From the NCBI GenBank assembly GCA_038064675.1, contig JBBTSM010000002.1:6507-70506 (forward strand): a stretch of 64,000 nt of DNA. Reading direction: 5' to 3'. Position numbers and translations under genes: made by a program. Positions 6,444-35,308 of this stretch are shown here, piece after piece. A model generated the notes under the pieces. The model made no database searches. It had not been told where the DNA came from and saw nothing but the letters and a program-made list of their open reading frames with translations. This DNA comes from Patescibacteria group bacterium (GTDB lineage Bacteria > Patescibacteriota > Patescibacteriia > UBA9934). Within the stretch, counting starts at the first letter, position 1. Each line of letters starts with the position of its first letter.

Positions 6444-7103
6444 TGGTATATGACCGACGAGGATCGAATAGCACGGCAGGAGAGTGTCGAGGGGAACGAC
6501 CTTCCGGATGCTGCAATTGCTGAAGTTTTTGATGCGTACGAACGAGTGATTCCTTTGCCGAAAGCTCCTGGGGTAAAGCCCTGGATATTGTGTGTTGTGG
6601 GACTCGTGGGCGCCGGAAAGACTACAGTGGTGAAGCCGGTGAGCGAGCGTCTTGGCCTGGCGCGAGTTTCAAGTGATGAGTTGCGTGTTCTTCTTCGTGA
6701 TCGCGGCTACAATTTTTTGAGAACGCGCGAATTGGCAAAGATGCTCATCGAGAAATATCTCCGGCAAGGATTCGGTGTTTCTATCGACGCAGACAATGTC
6801 GATCCAGAACATCAGGCGATTTTGCAGAAGGCTGCCGACGCTGCTCAGATTCCCATTATTCGCATCCATATCAATCCGCCCGAGGCATTCATTCTTGATA
6901 AGCTACAAAATCGCATTCAATACGTGCCATCGGGAATTTTGGAGAACGCCGACGCTGCCATCGCGAACTATTTCCGTCGAAAACCTTTGCATGAGAAATA
7001 TCTTTCGCTCATCACATTCGATTGGGTTTTTGATACCTCAAAAGATAATCTTGCTCGGCAGATCGACGATTTCGTGACCGCGATGCACGGTCGGGGATTC
7101 TAA
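6444..7103 (+). CDS. P-loop NTPase / predicted kinase (AAA_33-like)
   Basis: It has Walker A GLVGAGKTT. The start is taken at MTDEDR because the longer ORF would abut the divergent padR start. Confidence 0.55.
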   Translation, partial: WYMTDEDRIARQESVEGNDLPDAAIAEVFDAYERVIPLPKAPGVKPWILCVVGLVGAGKTTVVKPVSERLGLARVSSDELRVLLRDRGYNFLRTRELAKMLIEKYLRQGFGVSIDADNVDPEHQAILQKAADAAQIPIIRIHINPPEAFILDKLQNRIQYVPSGILENADAAIANYFRRKPLHEKYLSLITFDWVFDTSKDNLARQIDDFVTAMHGRGF

Positions 7104-7133
7104 AACCTAAGATTCAAGACCTGATCCCTTCTG

Positions 7134-15894: not shown

Positions 15895-15969
15895 GGCTCC
15901 ATCGTCTAATGGTTAGGACACGGGCTTTTCAAGCCTGTAACCGGGGTTCGACTCCCCGTGGAGTCACCA
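15895..15969 (+). tRNA. tRNA-Glu (anticodon UUC), CCA encoded
   Basis: A cloverleaf was folded by hand. The acceptor is GGCTCCA/TGGAGTC. The anticodon loop is TTTTCAA. The T-loop is GGTTCGACTCC. Confidence 0.8.
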
Positions 15970-17449: not shown

Positions 17450-17472
17450 AGCTGTTTTGCGAAACGAACTTA

Positions 17473-17985
17473 TTATATCGTTCTGCGGCCATTACGAAGC
17501 TCCCGCAACTCACGCATAGCGCGGAGCATACGGTTCTCCACGTTCGTCTCGTATCGTGCGTAGATGCCGTACAGGCGTTCCATTGCCTCCGCTCCTACCT
17601 TTGGGGTGTATCCCGCACGTTCGACGACTTCCTCGCTCCACACCAACTCCTCGAATCCTGAAAAACCCTCCTTTGTTTTCGTGACGACAACACGGGGATC
17701 GAGGACGGACTGCACGAACTCACGCTCCGCCTTGGTGATGCGATTGAGTTTCACATAATGCACAGCGATGCGTTCGAGTAGGATGCTTTCCAGTGCGTTT
17801 TGTGGGGAGAACTCGACCCGAAGCTCGGTGAGTACGCCGAGCTCCGCATCCTTCTCATATTCGGTAAGTGTATCGCGCAACATGCCGTGTGTCGTCGCGT
17901 TATAGCGCGTCGCGGCCTTGCCTTCATCGGTTTGCGGGCCTCCGCCGTGCGTGGCCTGTTGTTTGTTATTGTCCATATACTTCAA
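17473..17985 (-). CDS. hypothetical protein (island cargo)
   Basis: The ORF is 170 aa and co-oriented. No motif was recognised. Confidence 0.4.
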   Translation of the reverse strand: MKYMDNNKQQATHGGGPQTDEGKAATRYNATTHGMLRDTLTEYEKDAELGVLTELRVEFSPQNALESILLERIAVHYVKLNRITKAEREFVQSVLDPRVVVTKTKEGFSGFEELVWSEEVVERAGYTPKVGAEAMERLYGIYARYETNVENRMLRAMRELRELRNGRRTI

Positions 17986-18231
17986 TGAAAAGTTTTGCGA
18001 AGCGGTTCACCTCGGCGGTGATGTTGTCGCGCGTATCCTCGTCTCTAATTTCCAAACGGTCGAACTCCTTACGGAGTTTGGCCTTCAAGGCCTCGTGCTC
18101 GACCATATCCAAATGCGGCGACTGTGCGCCACATTCGGTTCAAGGAGCTCTCGATGCCGAATGACAAAAGTTGTTTATTTATTATGGCTGCACACGTCGA
18201 GGATCTCTCGATCACGCATAGCCATACTGCC

Positions 18232-19068
18232 TTACGCTTTCTGTACTATCTCGCTCTCACACGTCACCATTTTTCCGCCCTGTACGAATATCGTAACCTT
18301 TTGATAATCGTGCGCCTTGATCGCATCGGTGATGTCTTTGGGGGACAGATCGCCGCGCTCTCGCTTCGTTCCTCGAAACGTAGTCACGTTGCCGTTCTTC
18401 AAGGCCACTTCTATCTTCTCGAAGTCACCAGAACGCATTACTTCAAGCACGTCTTTTTCTTCCTTACTCACGCTTCCTCCGCCAAGGAGCACTTCGCTGC
18501 ACACTTTGAACATTGGGCCGTAGTCGATGGAACCCTTCGTTCCGAGTTTGCCAAGGAGCTCGTTGACGAACTCGTGCAAGTTGATGCAAGTGAATGATTT
18601 TCCGCCCATGCCGCCGTAAAGGTTGATGGACACGGGATCGTAAAAATCCGCGCCAAGGTCTGGGGAGTATTTCAGGATGATGGGGATGCCGAGGAATGCA
18701 TAGCCGATTGCCTTTGCCGACAATCCCCTCGGCTCGGCAACAATGCCGCCCATTCGTGGGATACCTTCGTCCTTTTCTCCTTTGAAAAATGCTTTGTAAA
18801 GCGGGAGAAGCTGTTTGTTTGTAAATCCGTTTCGTTTGAGCTCCTGTGTTACAGCAAGGAAAATAAGCTCATTGAAAGAAAACTTGCGCCATTTGCCCTC
18901 GTCCTCCTGCGCGTCGAGGATGCCGTCTTTGCTCAAAAGGTGGATCTGCCGATAGGTGAGCGACGTATCGGAAACCCGAAAGTTTGGTTTGTTGATGAAC
19001 TCCAAGATATTCATTTTGGCGTCCATTCGTATCAAGTTGAGTTCTGCTGCATCGGAAAAATAGAGCAT
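18232..19068 (-). CDS. hypothetical protein (island cargo)
   Basis: The ORF is 278 aa. No motif was recognised. Confidence 0.4.
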   Translation of the reverse strand: MLYFSDAAELNLIRMDAKMNILEFINKPNFRVSDTSLTYRQIHLLSKDGILDAQEDEGKWRKFSFNELIFLAVTQELKRNGFTNKQLLPLYKAFFKGEKDEGIPRMGGIVAEPRGLSAKAIGYAFLGIPIILKYSPDLGADFYDPVSINLYGGMGGKSFTCINLHEFVNELLGKLGTKGSIDYGPMFKVCSEVLLGGGSVSKEEKDVLEVMRSGDFEKIEVALKNGNVTTFRGTKRERGDLSPKDITDAIKAHDYQKVTIFVQGGKMVTCESEIVQKA

Positions 19069-19201
19069 ATCGCTCTGTAGTGTAGCACTATGAATCGAAC
19101 GAGCAAGTTCGTTTTATGCACAGCACTTGAAATAGAACACACCCGCCGAGACGCAGGTACACGACGGGCGTGTTCCTTTGTCTCGTACGGGTGTACGAGT
19201 G

Positions 19202-19738
19202 CTACCGCTGCGGTTCGCCGCGATAGCTACGGCGGTGATCTTCCTCGCAGGACCGCGCCTCCGCCTCGCTGGCGCACGCGAAGGCGTAGCTATCGCCCCG
19301 CAGGTCGGTAGGGCCACCTCCGACTTTGACCCTGAACGGCGCGGGGTTGTTACCGCGGTAGAGGGAGACGAAGCCGAACTTGTCCGCCATCTCCTCACTG
19401 ACCGTGACCCAGTTCCTGCCGCATTCGACGATCCACGCCTTCGTCTCCTCGACGAGGGCGAGAGCGCCATCGCGGGTCTTGGTGCTGTAGTGCCCTTGCA
19501 ACCGCATGCCGTCCCCAGTCCTGATCTCGATGCGATAGATCTCCAACGGCGCGTACTGCCCGCCGCTGATCGAGAGGATCGCGGCGCTGACGATCTGCTT
19601 CTTGGAGCGAGGACAGGTGGCGGGCGGGTTCTCCATCATCAGGGTGAAGTGGTGGGTGTGTCCCTGAAAGAAGAAGAGATCGCCGATCAGATCGCTCTTG
19701 CTCGGTCCCGCGATGATGCGGAACGTTGTGGTAGCCAT
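19202..19738 (-). CDS. hypothetical protein in GC-rich patch
   Basis: The patch is about 62% GC against a 50% background. The minus-strand ORF has a balanced composition. The overlapping plus ORF is Arg/Ala/Leu-rich and looks antisense. Confidence 0.35.
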   Translation of the reverse strand: MATTTFRIIAGPSKSDLIGDLFFFQGHTHHFTLMMENPPATCPRSKKQIVSAAILSISGGQYAPLEIYRIEIRTGDGMRLQGHYSTKTRDGALALVEETKAWIVECGRNWVTVSEEMADKFGFVSLYRGNNPAPFRVKVGGGPTDLRGDSYAFACASEAEARSCEEDHRRSYRGEPQR

Positions 19739-19958
19739 AACGGCTCCTTCTGTGTTGAACACCTTCGTCGTTGAGAGTGAAGGTAAGCTCCGTTACGCCG
19801 CATCGCTGCCGCGCCACCTGACCATAACGGACAGGGATTTTCGAGCGTGTGCCCGTCGGCAGCCACGACTTTCGTCATGCTCACCGAAGGACACAGCTCC
19901 ACTATAACGTCATATTATACCAGAAAATGGATACTTTGTCAATAAAATATCTCGTAAA

Positions 19959-19978
19959 TACGGCTAGTATTAGCCGTA
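19959..19978. repeat. perfect inverted repeat TACGGCTA-gtat-TAGCCGTA just downstream of recombinase 2
   Basis: Read from the sequence. Confidence 0.35.
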
Positions 19979-19997
19979 TAATCTTCCGCACCTCTGC

Positions 19998-21665
19998 TTA
20001 TACAAATACCCGTGTTTCACCCCTTATTGGTAGTACTATACGCCCGCATATTGGGGTTTTCTTGCCTCCATTCCGATGGCATATAGCTGTTTTAGCTCTC
20101 CCACGAGCTGGTTCCAAAACTCTACCGATTGGCTCACCAAAAGCTTCTCCGTCGAATATGACGGGGATGTTTTTGTTATGGACGAATTCTTTGCAGAGAT
20201 AATCAAGCGGAGCATTGAGAATGGCCTTGTAAAGTTTGCCGTCGCGCACGATGAGGTCTTTGAAGACGATGGCGAGGATCTGACGCTTCAACGGCTCAGG
20301 AGCCCGTTTGTAGGCCTTAGGGAGATCACGAATGAACGCCACTGCTCGCTCCAGAATTTGAATGGCCGATTGGATCATTGTTTGGTTCGCCTCCAGCCGC
20401 GCTTTGCAGCGAGCCCGATCGGAAGAAACTTCTTCACGGATGGTTTCGTAAATTTCCTCACTGAGTTTATTTTCCAGATACTTGTTCACGAGCGCCCGCT
20501 CTTTAGCGTCCAGCTCTTCAATCTTTCGCGTAAGCTCCCGACGCTCTTTCGTCACGGACGTCTGTTCTCGCTCGTGGATTTCTTGCAGCTTCTTCTCAAT
20601 GCGCCCAACGATGCGTGCGGGCAAACGCACCACTTTCAACGCTTTCAAAACTTCGCCCTCCAGCTGGGTCGTTTCAACGTAGGACTGCGAGCAGAAGACG
20701 GGGTGACCTTCCCGTTTCTTGGAGCAGCGGTAATAAGAAATTACTCGACCCGAGGAAGTCGTCTGTTTTTCGTAAGTAATACCACCGCCACACTCCCCAC
20801 AAATCATAATCCCGCGAAGCAGAAAAGCGTTCTTTCGTTTCTTGCTGCGTCCATGCACTCGATCTTCCAAAGCAAACTGGACGCGCTGAAAAAGTTCTCG
20901 GGAAATGAGAGGCACGTGCGATCCCTTCGCTTCAACGCCATTCCAGCGGATGGAACCGATGTAGAAGGGATTTTTGAGCATGCGGCAGATAACCGAACCG
21001 GATAGCGGCTTATCGACACGCCCCTGCCGAATGCCCTGCGAGTAGAGCCACTTGGTCAACTCGATCGCTGTGTATTGTCCGGTCGCAAACATTTCAAAGA
21101 CCTTTACCGCAAGGTCGCGCGTCTTCGGATCGGGGGCGACATACTTTCTTTCGATGCCGTCGGAGTCGATCTCCTTCACGTTTTTGTAGCCAAATCCAGC
21201 TTTGGTATTCCAAAGTCCCTGCTGGGCACGCTGGTTCATGCCCTTGAGCACGTCTCGGCCAAGGTTGAGTGACTGGTACTCCGCCATTGCAGCAAGAATG
21301 CCCTCTGTGAATTTTCCCTCCGGTGTCTCGTCGATGTTTTCCGTGGCAGAAATGAGCTTGATCTTCTTTTTGCGGAGAGTTCCGACAATGGCCGCATGGT
21401 CGATGGTGTTACGCGCAAGACGGCTGACTTGGTGAACGTATACCGCGTCGATACCGCCCTGTCTGCAGCGATCTAATAGCGCCTGAAGACCCGGCCGAGC
21501 GTCAGTACGCGCAGATTCTCCCTCGTCACGAAATATGTGCCCAATCTCGTAGCCATCAGCGGCGGCACGCGTTTTGCAGACCTCCTCCTGCGCGGGCAAG
21601 GAAAATCCCCGCTCGGCTTGCCGGTCGGTTGAAACACGTAAATAGAGAAGTGCTATTTTACTCAT
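19998..21665 (-). CDS. large serine recombinase (second copy, different sequence)
   Basis: It has ALLYLRVSTDRQ...GESART... and is 555 aa. Confidence 0.85.
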   Translation of the reverse strand: MSKIALLYLRVSTDRQAERGFSLPAQEEVCKTRAAADGYEIGHIFRDEGESARTDARPGLQALLDRCRQGGIDAVYVHQVSRLARNTIDHAAIVGTLRKKKIKLISATENIDETPEGKFTEGILAAMAEYQSLNLGRDVLKGMNQRAQQGLWNTKAGFGYKNVKEIDSDGIERKYVAPDPKTRDLAVKVFEMFATGQYTAIELTKWLYSQGIRQGRVDKPLSGSVICRMLKNPFYIGSIRWNGVEAKGSHVPLISRELFQRVQFALEDRVHGRSKKRKNAFLLRGIMICGECGGGITYEKQTTSSGRVISYYRCSKKREGHPVFCSQSYVETTQLEGEVLKALKVVRLPARIVGRIEKKLQEIHEREQTSVTKERRELTRKIEELDAKERALVNKYLENKLSEEIYETIREEVSSDRARCKARLEANQTMIQSAIQILERAVAFIRDLPKAYKRAPEPLKRQILAIVFKDLIVRDGKLYKAILNAPLDYLCKEFVHNKNIPVIFDGEAFGEPIGRVLEPARGRAKTAICHRNGGKKTPICGRIVLPIRGETRVFV

Positions 21666-21714
21666 ACGTTATTGGGTGAATTATGCGGTTATTTTTGAAT
21701 TCACGAAAGCCACG

Positions 21715-21840
21715 TTTTTCACTGCGGAAATTCCCGAGAAATCACTGCATAATCTCCGGCCATTTCACTCCAAAAATCACTGGAAGAATGTCCTTTCGAC
21801 AAAAAGAAAATCGCATAAGTAAGCCATGAAAATCACTTTT
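21715..21840. repeat. iteron-like direct repeats (A/T)AATCACT(G) x3 plus two TTTCACT variants upstream of recombinase 2
   Basis: AAATCACTG is at 21739. AAATCACTG is at 21774. AAATCACTT is at 21829. TTTCACTG is at 21718. TTTCACTC is at 21763. Confidence 0.4.
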
Positions 21841-21865
21841 CCCCTTATCCAACTTTCTGGAGTTT

Positions 21866-22459
21866 TCAATCAGGAGTTTCTGCAGTGCCCGCAGAAAAGT
21901 TTCCGCAGTCCCGAGTGTCGGTTATTGCGGCACGTCGTGCCTCGGCTCCTATGAGATTTTTATAGGTGAATTTTTCATCATCCCCGCCTCCATATGCGAC
22001 CCATCGCTTCTGATGGGGGACAAAAAGAATCACCTTGCCGTCAGGGAGAGCTTTTGCCGGATCCTTTCCAAAACGTAAACCTCCTTTGTTTACATATTTC
22101 TTATTCACTACATCTTGTTTGTATTCGCCCTGCCGAAGGGGAGGTACTCGCTCACCCGAATACCCCCCTTCGCCCTGCCGAATGGGTGTATGAGGAAAAA
22201 CATATCGGTTCACATGACCGGCTGTACGGGCCACACTCAGCCACCCTGCCTTTTCTAGCTTTATGACTGACTCGTAGAGGCATGTGAGGCCAATTTTATT
22301 CTTCGTCTTCTTGCGGAGTGCTGCATTGGAAGGATTGCATTGCCCAGTTCTGCCATTACGAAAAGATTGCAAAACCCCATATACCCAGTAATCTCGAAAG
22401 CTGAGATCTGGGTCGAGGGCTATGCCGTGAGGGTTCATTGAAAATCCTTTATTCTCCAT
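21866..22459 (-). CDS. hypothetical protein (island cargo)
   Basis: The ORF is 197 aa. No motif was recognised. Confidence 0.35.
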   Translation of the reverse strand: MENKGFSMNPHGIALDPDLSFRDYWVYGVLQSFRNGRTGQCNPSNAALRKKTKNKIGLTCLYESVIKLEKAGWLSVARTAGHVNRYVFPHTPIRQGEGGYSGERVPPLRQGEYKQDVVNKKYVNKGGLRFGKDPAKALPDGKVILFVPHQKRWVAYGGGDDEKFTYKNLIGAEARRAAITDTRDCGNFSAGTAETPD

Positions 22460-22469
22460 ATTCTTCTGC

Positions 22470-22742
22470 TCAAATTCCGTCGTAGAGGATGGACTTCAAC
22501 CGCTTAATCGCATTTACAAATGCAGGAGCGTGAACCAGCGCGTCGTGCCCAAGAGTAAACTCATTAGTCAGACGTCTTACATCGCCATCGTCCGCAAAAA
22601 TAAACGTCGCTCGGCTACCGTCTCGCTCGCAGTTCACGATGCGCTTACCGTGGGCAAGGAGATATGCCGCGAGGTAAAAATTACTCGTTGGAAACTCCAC
22701 GATCTCTGTTTTCATACGTATTCTGATCCGGCTGCCGTGCAA
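22470..22742 (-). CDS. small hypothetical protein (island cargo)
   Basis: The ORF is about 80-90 aa. Its true start is probably MKTEIVEF. Confidence 0.35.
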   Translation of the reverse strand: MHGSRIRIRMKTEIVEFPTSNFYLAAYLLAHGKRIVNCERDGSRATFIFADDGDVRRLTNEFTLGHDALVHAPAFVNAIKRLKSILYDGI

Positions 22743-22820
22743 TCAAATAAAGCGCCTCGGCGAGTTGCTCGATGAGCTGGTCTTCGGCGCTTTGTTGTGC
22801 GGCATCTGGCTTGAACATAA

Positions 22821-22844
22821 GGGCTACTCAACAAAGAGTAGCCC
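22821..22844 (-). terminator. hairpin downstream of the 22881..23576 gene
   Basis: GGGCTACTC-aacaaa-GAGTAGCCC. Confidence 0.4.
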
Positions 22845-22880
22845 TATGCCTCCTATGACTGGTTTCACCAATTCACGAAA

Positions 22881-23576
22881 TTAGTGAAACCGCTTTTTTG
22901 CACGATGTTTTTGCAGCTTTATGCGTTTGACCTCGGCATCCTCCTTTGCCTTTGAAGGAAATTCGTCGTCTACGTTCATCTGGGCGGCGATGTCGCGATT
23001 GGTTTTGATCATTGCTATCGGTTCGCCCGTATCGCTGTCGATGCCGTTGATGACGCCCTTTTGATGATGTAGCTTGAGAACTTTGGCATTTTCTTCGGCA
23101 TTGGGTCGACTTCTTGGGCTTTTATGCCCCATAGCTTCGTGAATGTCTTTTACGAGCTTATCACGCAGGCGCTTCTCTCCAGTTGCGAGTGGCATATCTT
23201 CAGCGTGTTCAATACGTTTTGAACCGGCGGTGATAGTGACGGAAAAGTTTCCCGGAATATGGCGGATCTTATTTAGCACGAGAAAATACCGCACTGCATC
23301 GTGATAGTTTTCAGCGAGCTTTAACTTCTCCAGCATGACGCGGATAGCGCATTTCAGTTCCATGTGCCGACGCGCTACATCGGCCATTGGGATTCCGTCT
23401 GGGCGAAGCCAAACGGCAGCGGCTGGTGCCGTTTCAAAACCCTCAGCGGGTATGCCAATACTCGTGCGCAGCTTCTGTGCAATCGCATCTCCATTACAGT
23501 AAGCCAACCGCTCAACAAAACGTTGGCGGTTTATTTCCGTGGCCTTTTCAGCCAATTCTAAATCCTTATTCTTCAT
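22881..23576 (-). CDS. hypothetical protein (island cargo)
   Basis: The ORF is 231 aa. It has a basic C-terminus. Confidence 0.4.
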   Translation of the reverse strand: MKNKDLELAEKATEINRQRFVERLAYCNGDAIAQKLRTSIGIPAEGFETAPAAAVWLRPDGIPMADVARRHMELKCAIRVMLEKLKLAENYHDAVRYFLVLNKIRHIPGNFSVTITAGSKRIEHAEDMPLATGEKRLRDKLVKDIHEAMGHKSPRSRPNAEENAKVLKLHHQKGVINGIDSDTGEPIAMIKTNRDIAAQMNVDDEFPSKAKEDAEVKRIKLQKHRAKKRFH

Positions 23577-23661
23577 ATTCTCGCCCTTGCTTACCAGTGT
23601 AATTCCTGTAAACTATCCTTACAATCTGCCTAAACCGGCTTCGGCCGGCATGGCACTAAAT

Positions 23662-23813
23662 CCACGCAAATAGAGACGGTCTCGTGACCGGCCCATTTGC
23701 GTGGTTCGTATTCGAAAGAATACGAGGCGGCTCCGAAAGGTGTCCGTCGCCGGCTCGCGGAACCTTTTGTGTTCCGCGACCCCAAGAAAATAATTCGTAA
23801 AACCACGCAAATA
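23662..23813. promoter_or_regulatory. three copies of CACGCAAAT(A) motif (two direct, one inverted) in divergent intergenic region
   Basis: CCACGCAAATA is at 23662. The inverted copy ATTTGCGTGG is at 23695. CCACGCAAATA is at 23803 and overlaps the ATG of the downstream ORF. Confidence 0.4.
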
Positions 23814-24313
23814 TGTCAGACGCAACGAGACCGATCTACCGAATGTGGTGGTTCTGGGTCGCGGCAGTGTTCGTTTTTCTAATGATCGTCGGCGCGATGT
23901 CGGGTGGATCCACGCCAACCAACGACAGCACGTCACAAGAGGCCACAACCCCGATAGTGAACGGCGAGCATTTGCTCGGGTTGACGATTGACGAGGTGCG
24001 CGAGGAGATGGGAATCCCTGATGACGAGAGCACCATGGACCCGACCGCGCAGCAGCTAGCGCTTGGTGGCACGAGTACGTGGACGAACCAGTACACGGTC
24101 AGCGATCACACTATCGTGCTCGATTTCGATATGAAGTCGCGGCAGGTCACCGGCTTCTTCATTGGCACCGACGAGAAAGACGGGATTACGCGCGACTGGA
24201 AGGCACTGCTCCCGCTTAGTGGTCTTTCTGAGGACGCGCAGGGATACTCCATCAAGCCAATCGGTGCGCTCAAGAGTCCCGGCTTCTACACCGGAGTGCA
24301 GGCGACGGAATAG
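23813..24313 (+). CDS. membrane-anchored hypothetical protein
   Basis: One N-terminal TM (WWFWVAAVFVFLMIVGA) is followed by a soluble domain. Confidence 0.4.
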   Translation: MSDATRPIYRMWWFWVAAVFVFLMIVGAMSGGSTPTNDSTSQEATTPIVNGEHLLGLTIDEVREEMGIPDDESTMDPTAQQLALGGTSTWTNQYTVSDHTIVLDFDMKSRQVTGFFIGTDEKDGITRDWKALLPLSGLSEDAQGYSIKPIGALKSPGFYTGVQATE

Positions 24314-24333
24314 TGAAAACACTGCTTAAATCC

Positions 24334-25767
24334 CTACATGATCAAGTGATCAAATTTGGCTTTTAACTTTTCAAATAATGCCTGATCTCCACCCTGTTGC
24401 TTAGCTTTAACAAGCTCAAAAACATCCTCATCATCAAGCGGAATCATAAACCCGCGGTCATCAACCGCAGTATCCTTGCAACGCTGCAAAAGGAGAGTTT
24501 TGTTTTCAATTTTTCTACAAACAAGAAAACCAAACTTTCCCCGACTAGGACCAAACCGGCCAGACAGTTGGTCGATCTCTGGATTGGCCGGATCGTCCGA
24601 ATAGTTTTTACATTCAACAAAAACCATTTGAGCGGGGTAGTGACTACCAAGCCAGTGAAAGAATCCGTTACTCATCACATTAACATAGCTGATGTCGATT
24701 CTCTTTCTACCGCTGTGGAGCTCGTGCTGAACATGTGGGTTGGTGAGTGCAGGATAAAATAAGGCCGAAAGCAAAGCTTCTATGGCTTTTTCGTACCGAT
24801 CTGCTTCCGCATTGCCGACCTGTGTCTGTTGTACCTCGCCGATTAGAGCATCCCAGTCCGGCAAAACTGATCCTTCAATAGCGGCAAGCTCAGAATGACT
24901 CAATGGAGGCGAAATATGTCGCTTCACTTCTTCTCGATACCGTTTCAGGATCGCGGGGTTCCTCAGAGTTTCCCGCGCGTTTACTGCCTTGCCAAACCCA
25001 TATTTTTCTTTTACCGATTTTTTGGTGACTCTTACACCACCCTTTTTAAGTACCTGTACCAATGAAGAGTTGGCAGAGATTTCTTCACGTTGCAGGTGTG
25101 GAATGATGTAATCGCGAAAATACTTATCAGGATTGTAGTTCAAGTCCTGACGTACAATCCCTTTTGGCACAAGAAGAAGCCGACCATCGTTCACCGTTGG
25201 TAGCCGAGCGTATTCAACTTTCCATGAACGACTCGCAGGATCCCACAATGGGCCAGAAACCACGTCGTCCGTAAGGGGTATTCCGTAAGTTTCGCACATT
25301 TCCTGTGTGTAGCGAATCAGGAAAGGCCTAATAAGGTTCGTTGTTATGTCGGAGACGATGTCAACGTCAATTCCAGGTACCATCAAAACGGTTTCTTCGA
25401 GATCTTCCAATAACCCTGTTTTAGCCGCTTCACTTTTGCTTAAAGCATCCCAAACAGTTCCCGCTAAAAGGTTGCCCATCCCTCGGCCGTGCGAAACTCC
25501 AACCGAAAGCCCAAGATGTGTTTCATTAGGTTCCCCCAGTGAAGAAAGCAAGCGCCTTGCGTTTTCATGATCACCGCTCTGGATAGAAGAAATGACGGCC
25601 TTAAAAAAGTTCTGGATGATGGAGATGCACTCGCTTGCCCATACCGAGGAGAGGAGCTTCAAAGAAAGCGGGTCAACAAAAAGAGGGGTGTCATTGACGA
25701 CATCCACGTCCACGAAATCAAGGGTTGGTTGACTTCGACCTAAAGAAAAATGCTCAGAAATTCTCAT
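24334..25767 (-). CDS. PD-(D/E)xK nuclease-fold protein (C-terminal), unknown N-terminal domain; defence candidate
   Basis: The C-terminal GRKRIDISYVN...QMVFVECKNYS...EIDQLSGR matches the D...(E)xK core arrangement of restriction-endonuclease-like folds. Confidence 0.45.
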   Translation of the reverse strand: MRISEHFSLGRSQPTLDFVDVDVVNDTPLFVDPLSLKLLSSVWASECISIIQNFFKAVISSIQSGDHENARRLLSSLGEPNETHLGLSVGVSHGRGMGNLLAGTVWDALSKSEAAKTGLLEDLEETVLMVPGIDVDIVSDITTNLIRPFLIRYTQEMCETYGIPLTDDVVSGPLWDPASRSWKVEYARLPTVNDGRLLLVPKGIVRQDLNYNPDKYFRDYIIPHLQREEISANSSLVQVLKKGGVRVTKKSVKEKYGFGKAVNARETLRNPAILKRYREEVKRHISPPLSHSELAAIEGSVLPDWDALIGEVQQTQVGNAEADRYEKAIEALLSALFYPALTNPHVQHELHSGRKRIDISYVNVMSNGFFHWLGSHYPAQMVFVECKNYSDDPANPEIDQLSGRFGPSRGKFGFLVCRKIENKTLLLQRCKDTAVDDRGFMIPLDDEDVFELVKAKQQGGDQALFEKLKAKFDHLIM

Positions 25768-25814
25768 GCTTATTCTTAGTTCGGCGAACCTAGTTTTTTG
25801 GGAATCCGCAGTCC

Positions 25815-26648
25815 CTACGCTTGCGGAGGTTGGTACCCCAGCTTATAGAGCGCTCCATTGAGCGACCCCTTATGCCCCGCAATTTTTTCTTGCCAAGCTT
25901 TTATCAGGGAATCATCTAAAGATTTCATGAACTCAGTGCGGATTTGTTCGTTCCCCCACTCGACATAATTGAGAATCTTTTCTTCAGTTAGATTGGAAAA
26001 GATCTTTGATCTCGCGTAGACAAAGAGTGGCCCATCGTTCGCGGAAATCGCTCCTCTCGCGCTATTGAAAGTTCTAATTTTGCCTCGTAGCTCTAGGTCT
26101 ATTTGGCTCCCTTTGGCTAGCGCCTCGTCAGCAATCTTTTTGAACTCCAAAAGGCGATAGAGAAGCATCGAGTCGCTGGGCTCTGCGGCCTTTGTGATGT
26201 TCTCAATATGCTTCAGTACAAGATTATAAACTCGGTTAATCGGCGTTCCGTGAAGATAGAAGGTGGCCCCTTCACTTTCGTCCATGACCCATGGCGTGGC
26301 TCCTTTGCTCAACTCCATCTGGAATTCTGGCTCGAAGACGGACTTAATCCAGCTATGTGCTTCTCTAGCGGCTCTAATTCTTTCGACGTTAACGGCGAAG
26401 AGATGTTGAATAAGAATCATTGCCAAGGAGACGAACAGGGTGACGAATCCGGCACCAATCAACTCGATAATCAAGGATTCTCGAAAGGAGCTTGAAAGTG
26501 ACGTCCCTCTTCCAAGGAAGTAGACGATTGTCGTTAAAAACAAAACGAATCCAACGATCAGTAAAGTGATTTTTGTTTTCTCTCCAACTTTCATAGCAGC
26601 TTTACTCAAAACTGCCTTTATTCTCTCATAAAATCTAGGAAATTTCAA
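25815..26648 (-). CDS. 2-TM membrane protein with cytoplasmic C-terminal domain (partner of the nuclease-fold gene)
   Basis: Two hydrophobic helices lie within residues 26-82. It is co-oriented with and 47 bp upstream of 24334..25767. Confidence 0.45.
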   Translation of the reverse strand: MKFPRFYERIKAVLSKAAMKVGEKTKITLLIVGFVLFLTTIVYFLGRGTSLSSSFRESLIIELIGAGFVTLFVSLAMILIQHLFAVNVERIRAAREAHSWIKSVFEPEFQMELSKGATPWVMDESEGATFYLHGTPINRVYNLVLKHIENITKAAEPSDSMLLYRLLEFKKIADEALAKGSQIDLELRGKIRTFNSARGAISANDGPLFVYARSKIFSNLTEEKILNYVEWGNEQIRTEFMKSLDDSLIKAWQEKIAGHKGSLNGALYKLGYQPPQA

Positions 26649-26790
26649 TCATGGGTGCGTTGTGTTAACAACAAACCCCGCGTCGAGAACGACACGAGCG
26701 CGCCGTCCTCGAGGGGAGCGGGGCTTGTCGTCTCACGCGGGGCGAGAGAAGGGTACGCGTTGTCACACTGCACCCGAGGTGCGAGGCCGA

Positions 26791-27312
26791 TCACCACACG
26801 TTCGCGTCTCGCATGGCGGCGATCTGGTCGCGGAGGCCTTCGTTGTTGCTGGCCGCGATGATGCGCTCGACCAGCTCGTCGTCCATCAGGCCGAGCTCCC
26901 TCGCCGCGAGCACGCACACGGCCTCGTCCTCCTCCTCGCTGAACCCGGAGAAGGAGAAGATCATGTCGTCCGCGAGGGCGATCGCGCCGCCGTAGGCGCG
27001 GTCACGCTTGTCGGGCGCGGTCACGTCGCGGGTCTGGAAGCTGGAGACGTGGTCGGGGTGGCGCGACAGGCGCTCGGCCTTCTCGAGGGCGTGGTGGGCG
27101 TACTTGCGCACCTGCTCCCCGGAGGGGCGACGCACCTCGAAGCAGATGACGCACGGGATCTCCCCGCGTCGCCAGTAGGCGAAGAAGCCGCCCGTACGGG
27201 TACGGTCACGGATCGCGACGAGAGGGCCGATGCGTCCTGCGGCGTGGAGAACGGCGAGATCGAGCCGTCCTGCGGCTTCGGAACGGGAACAGGCGCGGAG
27301 AGGGAGTTCCAA
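26791..27312 (-). CDS. hypothetical protein in GC-rich patch
   Basis: The patch is about 65% GC. The minus ORF is more protein-like than the overlapping plus ORFs. Confidence 0.35.
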   Translation of the reverse strand: MELPLRACSRSEAAGRLDLAVLHAAGRIGPLVAIRDRTRTGGFFAYWRRGEIPCVICFEVRRPSGEQVRKYAHHALEKAERLSRHPDHVSSFQTRDVTAPDKRDRAYGGAIALADDMIFSFSGFSEEEDEAVCVLAARELGLMDDELVERIIAASNNEGLRDQIAAMRDANVW

Positions 27313-27499
27313 GAGTCCTCCAGAATCGGAAGAGGGTGGATGCCATTCGCCCCAAGACAGGGCTATTGCGAGCGCAAGTTAGCAAAAAGTCGCCGTTTTG
27401 TCTACACGACGATAGCAAGGGAATCAAAATTAAACCGCAGCAGCAGGAGCTTTTCCTTGTTTTTCAGGAGGTATTCGGTTAACGATGCTTTAGGTTCAC

Positions 27500-27537
27500 C
27501 ACAAGAAAACCACCCTTTATTGGGTGGTTTTCTTGTG
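27500..27537. terminator. 16-bp perfect palindrome CACAAGAAAACCACCC-tttatt-GGGTGGTTTTCTTGTG (bidirectional terminator-like; near island right edge)
   Basis: Read from the sequence. Confidence 0.45.
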
Positions 27538-27640
27538 TGTATAAAGGATAAAACCGATCGTGTTAGGGGACTCTAAAAGCAATAGCTCCTTTAAACATTT
27601 GTCCATTTATCCACCGTGCTCATTGGTGTGGTTTGGTAGG

Positions 27641-30498: not shown

Positions 30499-30660
30499 TA
30501 GGGTGATATTATGTTCACCGAATGGAGTTATCGACTAGGACTTTTCCATTTTAGACCAGTTTCGATGAACGATGAGAAATCTTCCGAGGTGTACTTCGTG
30601 GTACATTGAGGAAGATTTCGATATCGTGAGTCGAAAATGGGCAAAATGGGGAAGTCCTAT

Positions 30661-31377
30661 ATGAGAACAGCGCGTTTTTTTGTCCCCGCAGATTGGATTG
30701 CGCAAAGCGCGCAGGCCTTTTCGATTCCGGCGGGTTCGATACACAAACAGATTGTTTCCGTGCTTCGGATGAAGCCATCGGATCATATCAGTCTGTGCCC
30801 GAACGACGGAACAGAAATTGATTGTGAAATTACGGAGATTACCAAGGCAGCAATCCTCGGAAAGATTGTTGGATCTCGAACGGCCGAGCCGTTGCGCCCA
30901 TCAATCACTGTGTGTGCGGCGATCACGAAGCGCGACACGTTCGAGTGGACGTTGCAGAAATGCACAGAGATTGGTGCGACGGCGTTTATTCCGATGATCA
31001 CCGACCGCGTGATTAAAAAGACGAAGGAGGTTCCGGCGCGATGGATGGATATTCTTCGTGAGGCGAGCGAGCAGTCTGGCCGGACGACACTTCCAATGAT
31101 CCACGATCCGTCATCGCTGAAGTCGGCAATTGAACAGACGGCGAAGTTCGATCGAATCGTTCTTCACGAGTCGGTTGGAAAGGTTGCGCCAATGCCAAAG
31201 GTTCGCGTGATGGACCACGTTGCGCTATTTATCGGACCAGAAGGGGGATTTTCCGATACCGAGATCGAAGAGCTGCGATCGGCGGGATCGACGATCGTTC
31301 AGATCGGCGACCTGGTGATGCGCGCCGAAACCGCGGCCACGGTTGCAACGGCGCTTATTCGATTTGGGGCAATATAG
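30661..31377 (+). CDS. rsmE: 16S rRNA (uracil1498-N3)-methyltransferase RsmE
   Basis: It has an N-terminal PUA-like domain plus a SPOUT domain (GPEGGFS). The start is chosen at MRTARFFVP. Confidence 0.8.
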   Translation: MRTARFFVPADWIAQSAQAFSIPAGSIHKQIVSVLRMKPSDHISLCPNDGTEIDCEITEITKAAILGKIVGSRTAEPLRPSITVCAAITKRDTFEWTLQKCTEIGATAFIPMITDRVIKKTKEVPARWMDILREASEQSGRTTLPMIHDPSSLKSAIEQTAKFDRIVLHESVGKVAPMPKVRVMDHVALFIGPEGGFSDTEIEELRSAGSTIVQIGDLVMRAETAATVATALIRFGAI

Positions 31378-31460
31378 TCAGAAAGTTGTTCTTTTTTGGA
31401 ATTTTTGTTAGGATTTTCTGTCCCGAGCATCTCGCTCGGTGGCAGCCACACAGGTGATTC

Positions 31461-32627
31461 GTGGATTCTCCTCTCTCCATCGCCGTTCGCCGCGGTCTCG
31501 TTCGCGAGCTTGTCCAATATCCGCTCTCCTACGAGGAGATCGGGCAGGTGCTCGGCTTCGATGTCAGTACGATTGCGAACGACATCAGTGCGCTCCGGCG
31601 GGCAGGCGATCCGATCGCTCGCTCGAAGCCGTCGTACGCCGTACGACTCGCGGTCTACGTGCAGACCCTCAACGCGGAATCGCTGGATCTGAGTCCGGAG
31701 ATCACGATCGAGGTGCAAAAAGCGCTCCATTTCGGCCTCAACCTCGACGGGTTCGAAGTGGTGACGCGTGCCATGATCGATGGCATCAACATGGCCCGTG
31801 CGCCGAAGATTCCGCCCCATCTCTGGAACACCCAGCGGCTGGTGCACGCCATCTTCGGCTATGCCGCGCCCATCGACCAGTTCCTTTTCCGGCCGTGGGA
31901 TCCGCGTTTCAACGGACGCAAGATCGATCTTGCGGACGAAATGGCACGGCAGTGGTATCCACGGATGCTCTCGAGCGGCGTCGATCTCGTGAGCACGGTG
32001 AAGAATCATGTGGATCTCGCCCGCCAGTTCGTGGCGTTCCACGTGTACGAAGGGCAAGTGATGGAGCACCATATCGCTCCCATCAATCCGGATCGTCCGG
32101 CCAGCTGCCGCGCGGACGTGGTGGTGGGCAACGCCGTCAAGGAGCGGCTGGACAATGCGCTGGCCGCGCTGAGCAGTCGTTATCGTGAAGTGCTGCGCCT
32201 TCGTTACCCGGAAGACGGGAGTGAGGGGGAAGAGCTGTCCAAGATCGGGAAGCGCATGGAGCTCAGCCGCGAGCGCATCCGGCAGATCGAAGCCGAGGCT
32301 CTGAAAGAGATGCGAACGTTCCTCGTGGCGGACGACGTTGACATCCATCCGGTGTCCACGTTCGCCGCCGTGGTTGCGAATGTTCGGAATCTGGCCAGGC
32401 GCTACACCCCCGAGAATCCTGCCGATCTCTACCTTACCGGTTCCATCGCCGAACTCAATCTCTCGCCTCGTGCACAGGCGGTGATCGAGGAGCTCGGTTT
32501 GAGTCGGGTCTTTGAACTTCGCGGGGAAGGCTCTGGAAATATTCTCCATGCGGTGAACGGGGGGCGGAGTGTGGCCGATGAAGTGAAGTCGGCGCTCGAT
32601 AGGATCGAGGCTCGCTCGAAATGCTGA
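31461..32627 (+). CDS. sigma-70 region-4-containing protein with C-terminal HhH (alpha-CTD-like) segment; atypical architecture; GC-rich insert
   Basis: The region 4 HTH is LSSRYREVLRLRY...EELSKIGKRMELSRERIRQIEAEAL. The C-terminal segment is LSPRAQAVIEELGLSRVFEL. The region is about 60% GC. Confidence 0.5.
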   Translation: MDSPLSIAVRRGLVRELVQYPLSYEEIGQVLGFDVSTIANDISALRRAGDPIARSKPSYAVRLAVYVQTLNAESLDLSPEITIEVQKALHFGLNLDGFEVVTRAMIDGINMARAPKIPPHLWNTQRLVHAIFGYAAPIDQFLFRPWDPRFNGRKIDLADEMARQWYPRMLSSGVDLVSTVKNHVDLARQFVAFHVYEGQVMEHHIAPINPDRPASCRADVVVGNAVKERLDNALAALSSRYREVLRLRYPEDGSEGEELSKIGKRMELSRERIRQIEAEALKEMRTFLVADDVDIHPVSTFAAVVANVRNLARRYTPENPADLYLTGSIAELNLSPRAQAVIEELGLSRVFELRGEGSGNILHAVNGGRSVADEVKSALDRIEARSKC

Positions 32628-32687
32628 TCTCTAGCTTCGACGAGATCTGATCGGCAACAGAACGGGTTCTGGGTACAACGCCCGCGT

Positions 32688-32720
32688 GGGCCGCCTTCAG
32701 GGGCGGCCCACTTTCTTTTC
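32688..32720 (+). terminator. rho-independent terminator after sigma-like gene
   Basis: GGGCCGCC-ttcag-GGGCGGCCC is followed by ACTTTCTTTTC. Confidence 0.5.
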
Positions 32721-32741
32721 GAATGATTTCTTAAACCATAG

Positions 32742-32825
32742 GAGCGATTTGGCGATCTCGTGATGCGCGCTGAGACTGTGGCCATCATCGGCACGGCGCT
32801 GATCCGATTCTCCACAATAGGCTAG
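32742..32825 (+). pseudogene. duplicated, diverged 3' fragment of rsmE (ERFGDLVMRAETVAIIGTALIRFSTIG*)
   Basis: It is about 75% nt and 70% aa identical to the rsmE C-terminus at 31306..31377 (IGDLVMRAETAATVATALIRFGAI*). It is a stand-alone in-frame remnant. Confidence 0.55.
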
Positions 32826-32827
32826 GG

Positions 32828-33226
32828 TTGATCATGGTAGAATATTTTACCATTTCATGGGGTGCTTTCATGCTCGGAGTTTACCTGAAGCCTGTCGATC
32901 GTGCGGAACTTACTGCCCTTCTGCAGGCCAGATCCAATCGGCCCGAGCGGTACAGGCTTTTTCGGGAAGTACATCGACTCGTTGATGTGCTTGAGTTCTT
33001 GCGCGCGCAAGCAAATACCGTGCAAGACCTTCGTGACCTTACCACTCGCTTCCCGGGAAATCCGGAGCTGAACAACCCCGCCGATACGCGGCCGGTGAGT
33101 CGTGTGGTCCGTTGGATGGAAAGCCATGGTGTCGTGAAGCGCAGGATGCTTGGCTACCAGCTTTGCTGGGAATCTGAAGATGCTTTCGGAATGCACGTTC
33201 TCGATCTCGTGTGGGGTCGGCGATAG
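32828..33226 (+). CDS. hypothetical protein
   Basis: The ORF is 132 aa. No motif was recognised. Confidence 0.3.
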   Translation: MIMVEYFTISWGAFMLGVYLKPVDRAELTALLQARSNRPERYRLFREVHRLVDVLEFLRAQANTVQDLRDLTTRFPGNPELNNPADTRPVSRVVRWMESHGVVKRRMLGYQLCWESEDAFGMHVLDLVWGRR

Positions 33227-33436
33227 CGCATTGGAATCGCATACGCTCTCGAGCCACCAAACGGTGTGGCTCGTTGCTGTTTTTGTTGAGTTCTTTTGAG
33301 AATTATGCTAGGGTTCTTGGTCATTATCCATGACGCCAATTTTAGAGTTCGTACAAAAATGGGAGGAATCTAGAGGGATTTCACGAGTATGAATTCTTGG
33401 GCGACGCGCTTCTTCCGAATGGTGGAGCGCGTCGTT

Positions 33437-35308
33437 TTATAATCCGAGGTTCCGTTTTACTTCTTCAATCGACGTGATGCCGTCAACTGCCTTCAAGAGA
33501 CCATCTTGGGTCATGGTTACCATGCCCTGTACTTTACCAAGTTCTCGCATGTCGTACTCACTGATAGTGCCTTTTTCGATGATCGTCTTTTCAAGATCCA
33601 CGGTTTTGATCAGAATCTCGTACGCACCAACGCGGCCTTTGTAGCCGGTGTTATTACATTTGTCGCAGCCTTTTGGCCCGTAGAATTTAAGATTTGCGGT
33701 ATCCACCTTCGCTTCGCCGGATGCTTCCGGAATTTCGTCCAGATGTTTTTTGACGTCCACGAGTGTTTCCGTGTCGATTTCCACGATCTGTTTACACTCT
33801 TTGCAGAGTTTGCGTAGCAGACGCTGACCCATGATTGCGTTTAACGCTGGAGCAAGAAGATGCGGTGCGAGTCCCATCGATAAGAATCGCGGAATGGCTC
33901 CGGCGGCATCGTTGGTGTGAATTGTTGAAAGGAGAAGGTGACCGGTGAGTGCGGCCTGAACAGCAATCTCGGCAGTGTCGAGATCGCGAATTTCTCCAAC
34001 CATCACGATGTCTGGATCTTGACGGAGAATCGAGCGCAGACCTTTCGCAAAGGTGTAGTCCTTACTGTAGTCAATTTGGCTCTGGTTGATGCCTTCGACT
34101 TTATATTCCACCGGATCTTCGAGGGTGATGATTTTCACGTCTGACGTGTTGAGCTTGCGGAGAATAGCGTACAGCGTGGTGGTTTTACCGCTTCCCGTTG
34201 GTCCGGTGGTAATAATCATGCCGTTTGGCTTTTCGATTTCTTTCTGGAGTTTCTTCAACGATGCTGGGCGGAAGCCGAGTGCTTCGAATTCGACGGCGAT
34301 CGAATCTGGATTGAGCAAACGCATAACCACAGATTCTCCGAAGGATGTCGGGATCGTTGAAACACGAACGTCAATTTCTTTGTTTTTTTGGTAAATCGTA
34401 AATCGACCGTCCTGTGCTTGGTCGTTCACGTTAATTTTTAAGCTCGAGATGAGTTTGATGCGTCCGATAATCTTTTTCCATTGGTCTGCGGCCAGTTTCG
34501 CGACATCCTGAAGGATGCCGTCTACCCGGAAACGCACGGCAATACCCTTCTCTTCGGCTTCGATGTGGATGTCGGAGGATCCGAGTTTGAGCGACGCAGC
34601 GATGACGACGGCAATGACATCAGTAACGTTGGAATGCTCCAGAACGCCGGCGATAGACGAGAAATCCGTCATCTGCGCTTGGAACTTCACAATTTCCTCT
34701 TCCGTAATTTGTACGCCTTTGACGATTGGCTTGATCTTCGGCAGCGCATCGTACATCTTGATACCTTGTACGAAGCTTTCTTCGCTCATGATGTACACTG
34801 CGGTGTTGGTTTTGTGCCGTTCGCCAAGCTCGAATGCAAGTTCTTTGATACGGGGATCTTCCGGTTGCGTAGATCCAATGCGAAGTTCCGGGCCGGTGAA
34901 CAGAAACGAAATCGCTTTAAGTTGCTTTGCCTGCTCCTCCGGAATGAGCACGAGTGCATCTGGACTAATTGGGAATCCCTTGAGGTTGATGTAGGGAATC
35001 TTTTTGGTTTGCGATGCACGCTCTACCTCTGTTTCCCGTTCGCGAAGCGAGATGTTCTGCATTTTTTCCGTCAACTTGGACGATGTTTCGTTGCCGCCAA
35101 TGATGATGGATGCTTTCGCGGTAGGTGGGGGAGTCGCTGGTGCTTCAACGACGGAGGCCGGTGCTGAAGTGGTTGGGCCTGGCGTTTGTGTTGCGGTTGG
35201 GATTGTCGCGGGTTCGGTTGAAGTTTGTGCAACCGTAACTGGAGCCGGTGTGCTATCGGCGGTTTTCTTTTTCAACAGGTCTGCAATGGATGGAAGGTTT
35301 CCTGGCAT
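33437..35308 (-). CDS. pilB: type IV pilus / type II secretion assembly ATPase (PilB/GspE family)
   Basis: Walker A GPTGSGKTT is present. Asp box, Walker B and His box are present. The C-terminal CxxC...CxxC (CKEC...CDKC) is present. Confidence 0.85.
   Translation of the reverse strand: MPGNLPSIADLLKKKTADSTPAPVTVAQTSTEPATIPTATQTPGPTTSAPASVVEAPATPPPTAKASIIIGGNETSSKLTEKMQNISLRERETEVERASQTKKIPYINLKGFPISPDALVLIPEEQAKQLKAISFLFTGPELRIGSTQPEDPRIKELAFELGERHKTNTAVYIMSEESFVQGIKMYDALPKIKPIVKGVQITEEEIVKFQAQMTDFSSIAGVLEHSNVTDVIAVVIAASLKLGSSDIHIEAEEKGIAVRFRVDGILQDVAKLAADQWKKIIGRIKLISSLKINVNDQAQDGRFTIYQKNKEIDVRVSTIPTSFGESVVMRLLNPDSIAVEFEALGFRPASLKKLQKEIEKPNGMIITTGPTGSGKTTTLYAILRKLNTSDVKIITLEDPVEYKVEGINQSQIDYSKDYTFAKGLRSILRQDPDIVMVGEIRDLDTAEIAVQAALTGHLLLSTIHTNDAAGAIPRFLSMGLAPHLLAPALNAIMGQRLLRKLCKECKQIVEIDTETLVDVKKHLDEIPEASGEAKVDTANLKFYGPKGCDKCNNTGYKGRVGAYEILIKTVDLEKTIIEKGTISEYDMRELGKVQGMVTMTQDGLLKAVDGITSIEEVKRNLGL

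Follow-up and report, generated by a model that had tools for sequence, protein, structure and literature searches.

A duplicated rsmE 3' end as the footprint of a horizontal insertion between rsmE and pilB in an uncultivated Patescibacterium

How does a housekeeping gene come to end twice? In the stretch of DNA analysed here (the window, 64,000 nt), which comes from an uncultivated, Uhrbacteria-like Patescibacteria genome assembled from Hainich groundwater well H41, the methyltransferase gene rsmE is followed by a GC-rich gene, here called sigL, and then by a second version of its own 3' end. The local gene order is TrmB-like gene, sod (- strand), tsaD, tsaE, rsmE, sigL, rsmE relic, orf118, pilB (- strand), a gene of 340 aa (- strand) and ftsH (- strand). 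The original prediction, made from the sequence alone, had seen in this arrangement the classic pattern of site-specific integration into a gene terminus. We found that the feature is a real footprint of a horizontal insertion at a variable slot, an event of a familiar kind met here in an unusual host and at a target gene not described before, and we favour a homology-guided route over the site-specific one. For comparison we used loci numbered L below, 27 of which came from scanning genomes and metagenomes with RsmE; the closer relatives among these have an RsmE 65-90% identical to that of the window and share the synteny sod-tsaD-tsaE-rsmE ... pilB. The features that carry the argument are the following.

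30637-31377, + strand: rsmE, 16S rRNA m3U1498 methyltransferase gene, intact (Pfam, TIGR00046, C-terminal alignment).
31306-31377, + strand: working copy of the duplicated rsmE 3' end, GDLVMRAETAATVATALIRFGAI and stop (repeat, profile and alignments).
31386-31460, + strand: sigL leader (read from the sequence; alignment to L007).
31461-32627, + strand: sigL, 388 aa, GTG start (Pfam, PDB profile search, BLASTP, hhalign, AlphaFold2 (AF2) model).
32686-32725, + strand: sigL intrinsic terminator with an 11-bp stem and a T-run, hairpin at 32686-32711 (terminator scan; L007 alignment).
32726-32744, + strand: short spacer of ~20 nt between the shared sigL module and the relic (no significant match to the downstream sequence of L007).
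32745-32825, + strand: rsmE 3' relic, approximately the last 78 nt of an rsmE allele, in frame and with its stop (nhmmer E 4e-13).

The upstream rsmE matched Pfam Methyltrans_RNA (PF04452) with an E-value of 9e-43 and TIGR00046 with 146.5 bits (cut-off 41), and the protein comprises in full length the PUA-like N-terminal domain (PF20260) and the SPOUT methyltransferase domain (PF04452). Its true start is likely the ATG at 30661, where the orthologues begin (MRTARFF). The gene is intact, since 13 orthologues align with its C-terminus as far as the stop. The duplication of its 3' end around the insert was confirmed at the nucleotide level. The repeat copies correspond to the last 59-72 nt of rsmE, and positions 31306-31364 and 32751-32809 were identical at 45 of 59 nt (76%), with a longest exact run of 11 nt, GTGATGCGCGC. 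The second copy, at 32742-32825, translates as ERFGDLVMRAETVAIIGTALIRFSTIG and a stop, with the reading frame and the stop position (32825) of rsmE. When the terminal 90 nt of rsmE from 14 genomes were made into an nhmmer profile and run against the 64-kb window, 32745-32814 matched at E=4.1e-13 and the next best match in the window had an E of 0.015, so that the second copy is neither a chance nor a low-complexity similarity. The shortness of the repeat, and nothing more, would speak for chance or for a chimeric assembly. Given the profile match, the shared frame and stop, and the finding that 30600-33450 is 100% identical in 10 contigs from independent assemblies and several sequencing runs, which excludes an assembly artefact, we consider that explanation extremely unlikely. 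The relic has no plausible ribosome-binding site or start codon and sits behind a strong terminator and is, for these reasons, probably not expressed.

The differences between the two rsmE ends are informative on their origin. The ends differed at 15 positions in 20 codons and 11 of the 15 were third codon positions, an excess with a binomial p of 0.0018 compared to uniform decay and of 0.03 compared to drift of the relic alone. Eight codons were changed synonymously and four replacements were conservative (A/V, T/I, V/I, A/G), all states being present in orthologues, with no frameshift and no premature stop. The identity between the two ends is 0.76, a value to be set beside the 0.75-0.80 observed for the rsmE body between species. 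The relic terminus (RFSTIG and stop) and the promoter that follows it were collinear with the working terminus (RFSTTS and stop) and promoter of the related locus L035, and the working terminus of the window (RFGAI and stop) runs into sigL-specific sequence that is missing from the genomes with an empty site. By its last residues the working end of the window matches the L024-type terminus (RFG..) and the relic the L035-type terminus (RFST..). The third-position bias, together with an identity at the between-species level, indicates that the two ends come from different rsmE alleles, one of them, to judge from these alignments, acquired by horizontal transfer, and not from a duplication in place. 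An in-place origin would require a local tandem or target duplication of the rsmE end, a spare copy decaying neutrally and a sigL that is a fast-evolving resident; direct repeats flanking a single gene, both falling inside the spread of rsmE sequences in the clade, would fit it. We hold this very improbable, because the differences are mostly synonymous third-position changes free of frameshifts and internal stops, the two ends are of distinct allele types, and sigL is missing from related genomes and has a foreign-looking composition.

The insert between the two ends measures ~1.4 kb and contains, as predicted, a single GC-rich open reading frame (ORF) with a terminator and no recombinase; its 388-aa product is identical to a protein annotated by NCBI. 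The GC content of sigL is 0.61, against 0.52 for the window and ~0.52 for the neighbouring genes, and its GC at third codon positions (GC3) is 0.74, against 0.55-0.60 for these neighbours. The cassette opens 9 nt past the rsmE stop with a promoter-like TTGTTC (31386-31391), a 17-nt spacer and TAGGAT (31409-31414), a putative promoter that a stricter promoter scan did not list. The leader then exhibits a 5' hairpin, CCGAGC/GCTCGG (31423-31439), and a ribosome-binding site, AGGTGA (31452-31457). No Rfam family was found in the sigL leader, in the relic or in the inserts of L012, L015 and L007.

A single true homologue of sigL was found among 5.8 billion proteins, with 52% identity, and is encoded on L007. 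The order on this contig is orf117 (a homologue of orf118), terminator, decayed rsmE 3' end, sigL leader, sigL homologue, terminator and pilB. A similar insert is seen in L007, where sigL also has a decayed rsmE end on its left. The L007 relic carries a 1-nt deletion and begins ...ATGCG straight after the orf117 terminator. The sigL and orf118-type cassettes are found in both orders, sigL first in the window and second in L007, and in both loci an rsmE end and the leader stand directly before sigL; the last ~45 nt of the working rsmE end of the window, with the leader, are collinear with the L007 relic and leader. An rsmE end also stands directly before the orf118-type gene in the window, in L035 and in L024. 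The relic starts at about -78 in the window and at about -62 in L007, where it is decayed, a comparison of two genomes only.

The GC anomaly of sigL is seen in both carriers. The leader is 81% identical between the window (31386-31460) and L007 (525-597), and the terminator is nearly identical (32686-32725 and 1828-1868, respectively) and forms the right edge of the sequence common to the two; beyond it, where a right arm of an element might be expected, the similarity of the window to L007 was not significant. The coding sequences are only 66% identical in nucleotides and 52% in amino acids, well below leader and terminator. This suggests either that the regulatory RNA or DNA of sigL is under strong constraint or that the protein is under diversifying selection, and the better conservation of leader and terminator hints that sigL may be autoregulated.

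What occupies the same interval in the other relatives? The rsmE-pilB interval is empty (3-155 nt) in L013, L014 and L016, where pilB follows rsmE directly; it holds an orf118-type gene alone, with no sigL, in L024 and L035, and it is filled by unrelated DNA in L012, L015, L027 and L020. On this comparison of loci, sigL is an insertion relative to related genomes whose site is empty or carries the orf118-type gene only. The interval is, on the same comparison, probably a hot spot of gene gain in this Uhrbacteria-like lineage. It is identified here as a slot that differs among related genomes, and the insertion left a clean trace, open to dating, of how an uncultivated bacterium with a reduced genome gains a single regulatory gene without harming the adjacent housekeeping gene.

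The duplication, the two-allele origin, the collinearity of rsmE ends and cassettes and the variable occupancy of the slot in relatives are read directly in these alignments; the recombination route has to be deduced from them. We think it rather likely that foreign cassette DNA was gained additively and under the guidance of homology at the rsmE-pilB slot. The slot holds small cassettes that are complete in themselves, a single gene between a promoter and a terminator of its own, and in the window two of them, sigL and orf118, are stacked. Directly before each lies a separate version of the rsmE terminus, 60-80 nt long; one completes the working rsmE and the other (32745-32825) is a relic, probably without function. 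DNA from a related genome, consisting of a cassette and of the adjoining piece of the rsmE end of that genome, would have been added, not swapped in, at a locus already holding the other cassette. The anchor would be rsmE or, on the other side, the highly conserved pilB, and recombination guided by either homology would need no dedicated integrase. Two routes are conceivable, a single Campbell-type crossover with a fragment that had circularised, or uptake of DNA followed by homology-facilitated illegitimate recombination. Because the cassette promoters start ~10-15 nt from the rsmE stop, an additive insertion that spares both rsmE and the cassettes almost must carry a spare rsmE end, and the relic would then be a by-product of the way in which both promoters abut this stop. 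Homology-guided addition accounts for the allele-level divergence, for the absence of a recombinase, for the absence of outer relics and for the unequal junctions.

Several observations weigh against a homology-guided gain. A sliding-window identity analysis of rsmE with nine relatives gave no signal of a mosaic tract inside the gene, the relatives being too distant, and no diagnostic microhomology could be resolved at the insert junctions. The sigL gene is carried by two genomes only, the window and L007, so that what looks systematic amounts to two events. The contig L007, 2.8 kb long, stops short of rsmE, and the position of its cassettes after that gene is assumed; its relic is weak by itself (nhmmer E 0.28) and convincing only through the collinearity of the leader. 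Homologous recombination across ~20% divergence is inefficient. Moreover, a site-specific mechanism would likewise be expected to give two independent breaks in the terminal 80 nt of rsmE, and an insert bordered by direct repeats of the rsmE 3' end that keeps rsmE intact is what such a mechanism would leave.

The site-specific alternative would be integration with tandem accretion, in which recombinase-less, mobilisable sigL and orf118 cassettes carry an attachment site mimicking the rsmE 3' end and are inserted by an integrase encoded elsewhere, possibly one of the two large serine recombinases of the window or a tyrosine recombinase from another part of the genome. Each insertion would restore rsmE and shift the earlier end and cassette downstream, so that the newest cassette adjoins rsmE. 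The presence of an rsmE end on the left of each cassette and the opposite cassette orders in the two genomes agree with accretion in different sequence, and the two relic starts lie at most ~16 nt apart, near the sole 11-nt perfect match. No recombinase was found in or beside the insert, however, and no tyrosine recombinase in the 64-kb window. The only recombinases encoded in the window are two large serine enzymes, which lie in a strain-specific island 10-15 kb upstream of the insert and are separated from it by core genes. Their proximity could speak for this alternative. Large serine recombinases, however, normally act on short sites, with a crossover of 2 bp, and do not as a rule leave direct repeats of 60-80 nt.

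The count of rsmE ends also bears on accretion, in which n cassettes should give n+1 ends. The window has two cassettes and two ends. A third, older relic was sought after orf118 (33255-33436), where local alignments were no better than shuffles and nhmmer found none; beyond sigL in L007 the local alignments were likewise at shuffle level, with no nhmmer match, and after the lone cassette of L024 and L035 no relic was significant. In addition, the relic start points are not identical and there is no identical core beyond 11 nt. Relatives of sigL are absent from viral, phage and plasmid collections, in which viral contigs, phages and plasmids gave generic RpoD region 3-4 matches only for sigL or its family, and the other members of the SigL family are ordinary chromosomal genes. 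For these reasons the classic site-specific integration originally proposed is no more than a possible route; recombination of foreign DNA anchored by homology accounts for the data just as well, and we regard accretion of this kind as rather unlikely.

The same evidence bears on a wider version of this idea, that a dedicated cassette-capture mechanism operates in the lineage, which we consider unlikely. In its full form, recombinase-less promoter-to-terminator cassettes would be inserted in trans into the rsmE 3' end, each with a replacement end, and would stack in an integron- or tycheposon-like manner with the terminus of a housekeeping gene as attB, their cargo including a fast-diverging fusion of sigma regions 3-4 and the alpha subunit C-terminal domain (alpha-CTD) that rewires promoter recognition; this is a doubtful proposal. 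If a trans-acting recombinase were responsible, the slot would represent a new cassette-capture system in the Candidate Phyla Radiation (CPR); if not, it is an instructive and otherwise ordinary case of additive horizontal transfer.

ICESt1 and ICESt3 with their integrase-less cis-mobilisable (CIME) derivatives at fda of Streptococcus thermophilus, and SGI1 at trmE, are presumably the closest models of elements that target gene 3' ends and carry a replacement end. As here, direct repeats of the gene 3' end flank the insert and the gene stays intact, and in the ICESt1/ICESt3-CIME type tandem stacking is possible and integrase-less derivatives exist. Unlike these elements, the unit found here is a single 1.4-kb gene with no linked integrase, its repeats are only 76% identical with a longest match of 11 nt, and the relics are fewer than accretion predicts; moreover, neither the rsmE target nor a Patescibacteria host is among the described cases, and full-text searching of the literature gave no relevant report of integration at rsmE. 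Tycheposons target tRNA genes, with tyrosine recombinases carried or neighbouring, and integron cassettes are promoterless, bordered by attC hairpins and located next to intI. The likeness to tycheposon hot spots and integron arrays lies in the gathering of small cargo modules at one conserved site with partial target copies between them, whereas the tRNA target, the tyrosine recombinase, attC, intI and promoterless cassettes are all missing here. Homology-facilitated illegitimate recombination has been described in the natural transformation of Acinetobacter and Streptococcus pneumoniae. In this process one-sided homology adds foreign DNA with no need for an element-encoded recombinase, and the outcome is an additive insertion with a hybrid gene where the homology anchors it and a short duplication where the illegitimate joint forms. 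The presence of pilB beside the slot, a component of the type IV pilus machinery used for DNA uptake, would fit transformation-type recombination. In contrast with the described cases, diagnostic microhomology and a mosaic tract were not resolved at this locus, and the route is proposed from sequence.

What did the cell gain with this insertion? The original prediction had called the cargo odd, with a sigma region 4, an alpha-CTD-like end and no region 2; these features stood, the alpha-CTD-like end being weak, and the protein proved less odd than supposed in that region 3 is present and the architecture recurs in a family. SigL comprises an N-terminal helix-turn-helix (HTH) domain, a helical region, a sigma region 3-like part (~99-200), region 4 (~226-290) and a degenerate alpha-CTD-like C-terminus (~325-385). 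It matched Pfam Sigma70_r4 (PF04545) at E 1.2e-14 with 54 bits (cut-off 24.1) and RNA_pol_A_CTD (PF03118) at E 0.011 with 15.9 bits, below the cut-off of 23.8. In BLASTP, residues 99-285 aligned to RpoD regions 3.0 to 4. For sigma region 2 (PF04542) there was no Pfam match, the profile-profile comparison with RpoD by hhalign aligned region 4 only, and the BLASTP alignment begins at RpoD region 3.0. An AF2 model built from 18 sequences had a pLDDT of 81 with the C-terminal alpha-CTD-like domain folded; Foldseek placed sigma factors first, with full-length alignments whose low TM (0.15-0.18) and E of about 5e-3 do not decide on the presence of region 2. The alignment also showed that the SigL C-terminus has lost residues of the NCL and FGxKS motifs that other family members keep.

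Scanning 1.84 billion representatives in full with HMMER and a profile made of two sequences returned 137 proteins at E<1e-10, among which roughly thirty proteins of 370-450 aa, the closest in full length, matched through both sigma region 4 and the C-terminal domain. In Pfam the family members exhibit an N-terminal HTH, Sigma70_r4 and a canonical RNA_pol_A_CTD (E 1e-12 to 1e-28), and the family profile matched alpha-CTD structures of the PDB at E 5e-34 and sigma domain 4 at E 2e-24. SigL aligned in full length with three of them (P0122-P0124) over ~380 residues at E 1e-30 to 1e-33. By these alignments SigL is a full-length member of a recurrent Patescibacterial HTH/sigma 3-4/alpha-CTD family without region 2. 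The other family genes lie amid housekeeping genes (uvrB; efp, a tRNA synthetase gene, rpsR, ssb and rpsF) on groundwater CPR-like contigs and not at rsmE. With sigma-70 factors SigL shares a clear region 4 (Pfam E 1e-14) and a region 3.0-3.2 that aligns to RpoD, and it differs from them by the lack of region 2 and by the extra N-terminal HTH; the RNA polymerase alpha-CTD is matched by the family profile (E 5e-34), the copy of SigL itself being degenerate (Pfam E 0.011). Because region 2 is lacking, SigL should be unable to act as a sigma factor and is best read as not being one; it is most likely a DNA-binding transcription regulator or a sigma-4 mimic that would act through its sigma-4-type and N-terminal HTH domains. 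A literature search for sigma/alpha-CTD fusions in Patescibacteria found nothing relevant. The family, undescribed so far, joins the promoter-recognition modules sigma region 4 and alpha-CTD without the core-binding region 2 and may matter for transcription control in Patescibacteria.

Two family loci have a shared neighbourhood. In L039 (6236-10252) and L041 (2729-5071) the family gene is followed by a conserved gene of unknown function (~297 aa) and by a DUF3298/PdaC gene, and in L039 a 254-aa protein with a faint Sigma70_r4 match precedes it. From this arrangement, the genes may form a small conserved regulatory cluster.

The right part of the slot comprises the second cassette, a unit adjoining pilB, and pilB itself.

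32835-33226, + strand: orf118 cassette (CDS 32870-33226, 118 aa).
33250-33284, + strand (33250-33273 in a narrower delimitation): orf118 intrinsic terminator, kept in L007 and L035 (terminator scan, alignment).
33286-33436, + strand: resident pilB-proximal unit, right limit of the variable slot (alignment across locus variants).
33437-35308, - strand: pilB/T2SSE ATPase, conserved right flank of the variable slot (Pfam T2SSE E 8e-121; synteny).

The orf118 cassette begins directly after the relic stop with an extended -10, TGgTAGAAT (32835-32843), that is kept in L007 and L035. A word-indexed search for homologues returned only the orf118 protein itself, and no family match was found in Pfam, PHROG, PADLOC or NCBIfam. 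A 12-nt direct repeat, TA(G/T)GCTAGGGTT, flanks the cassette at 32818-32829 (relic stop) and 33304-33315 (-10 of the pilB-proximal unit); it is not significant alone, 45 of 500 shuffles reaching its score.

The pilB-proximal unit exhibits a promoter-like TTGAGT-17-TAGGGT, a 5' hairpin, a GATGGGAGG motif and a bidirectional terminator at the pilB stop. It is retained in every locus variant, including the empty sites (L013 6718-6872, L014, L024, L035, L007), with the consensus TTGnnn-17-TAgGnT and GATGyGrGG for the GATGGGAGG motif. No Rfam match was obtained for the unit, which may represent a short leader or a small RNA. A four-codon mini-ORF (MGGI and stop) was considered within it and set aside, since the multiple alignment favours a conserved GATGGGAGG RNA or DNA motif instead.

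Other contents of the interval were seen in the relatives. L012 (5027-6200), L015 (4768-5990) and L027 (960-1709) share a homologous, apparently non-coding stretch of ~1.2 kb that opens with a hairpin right after the rsmE stop; neither an Rfam family nor a clean ORF was recognised in it. Behind this stretch L012 and L015 carry a second TrmB-like gene, divergent and on the - strand. A distant clade (L017, L018 and L019, about 6710-7790; L022, L031 and L033) has the inverted synteny ftsH, pilB, rsmE, tsaE/tsaD (- strand). There, too, the region after rsmE is variable, with ~1 kb in some genomes and nothing in L021 and L023, and no rsmE relics are present after rsmE. Some genomes of this clade carry a TraR/DksA-like zinc-finger gene after rsmE with its own TTGACA/TATAAAT promoter.

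The two large serine recombinase genes upstream lie at 15929-17449 and 19998-21665, both on the - strand, with Resolvase and Recombinase domains and, in the second, a Zn ribbon. Beyond them lie ~6 kb of hypothetical genes, including DUF5659 and DUF8370. In L012 and L013, the relatives whose sequence extends to the upstream side of TrmB-sod, none of the genes of this region (15929-27560) is present there, and on this account the region looks like a strain-specific integrated element or a prophage remnant. Within the hypothetical genes past the recombinases, the GC content spikes to 0.70 at about 27000-27300.

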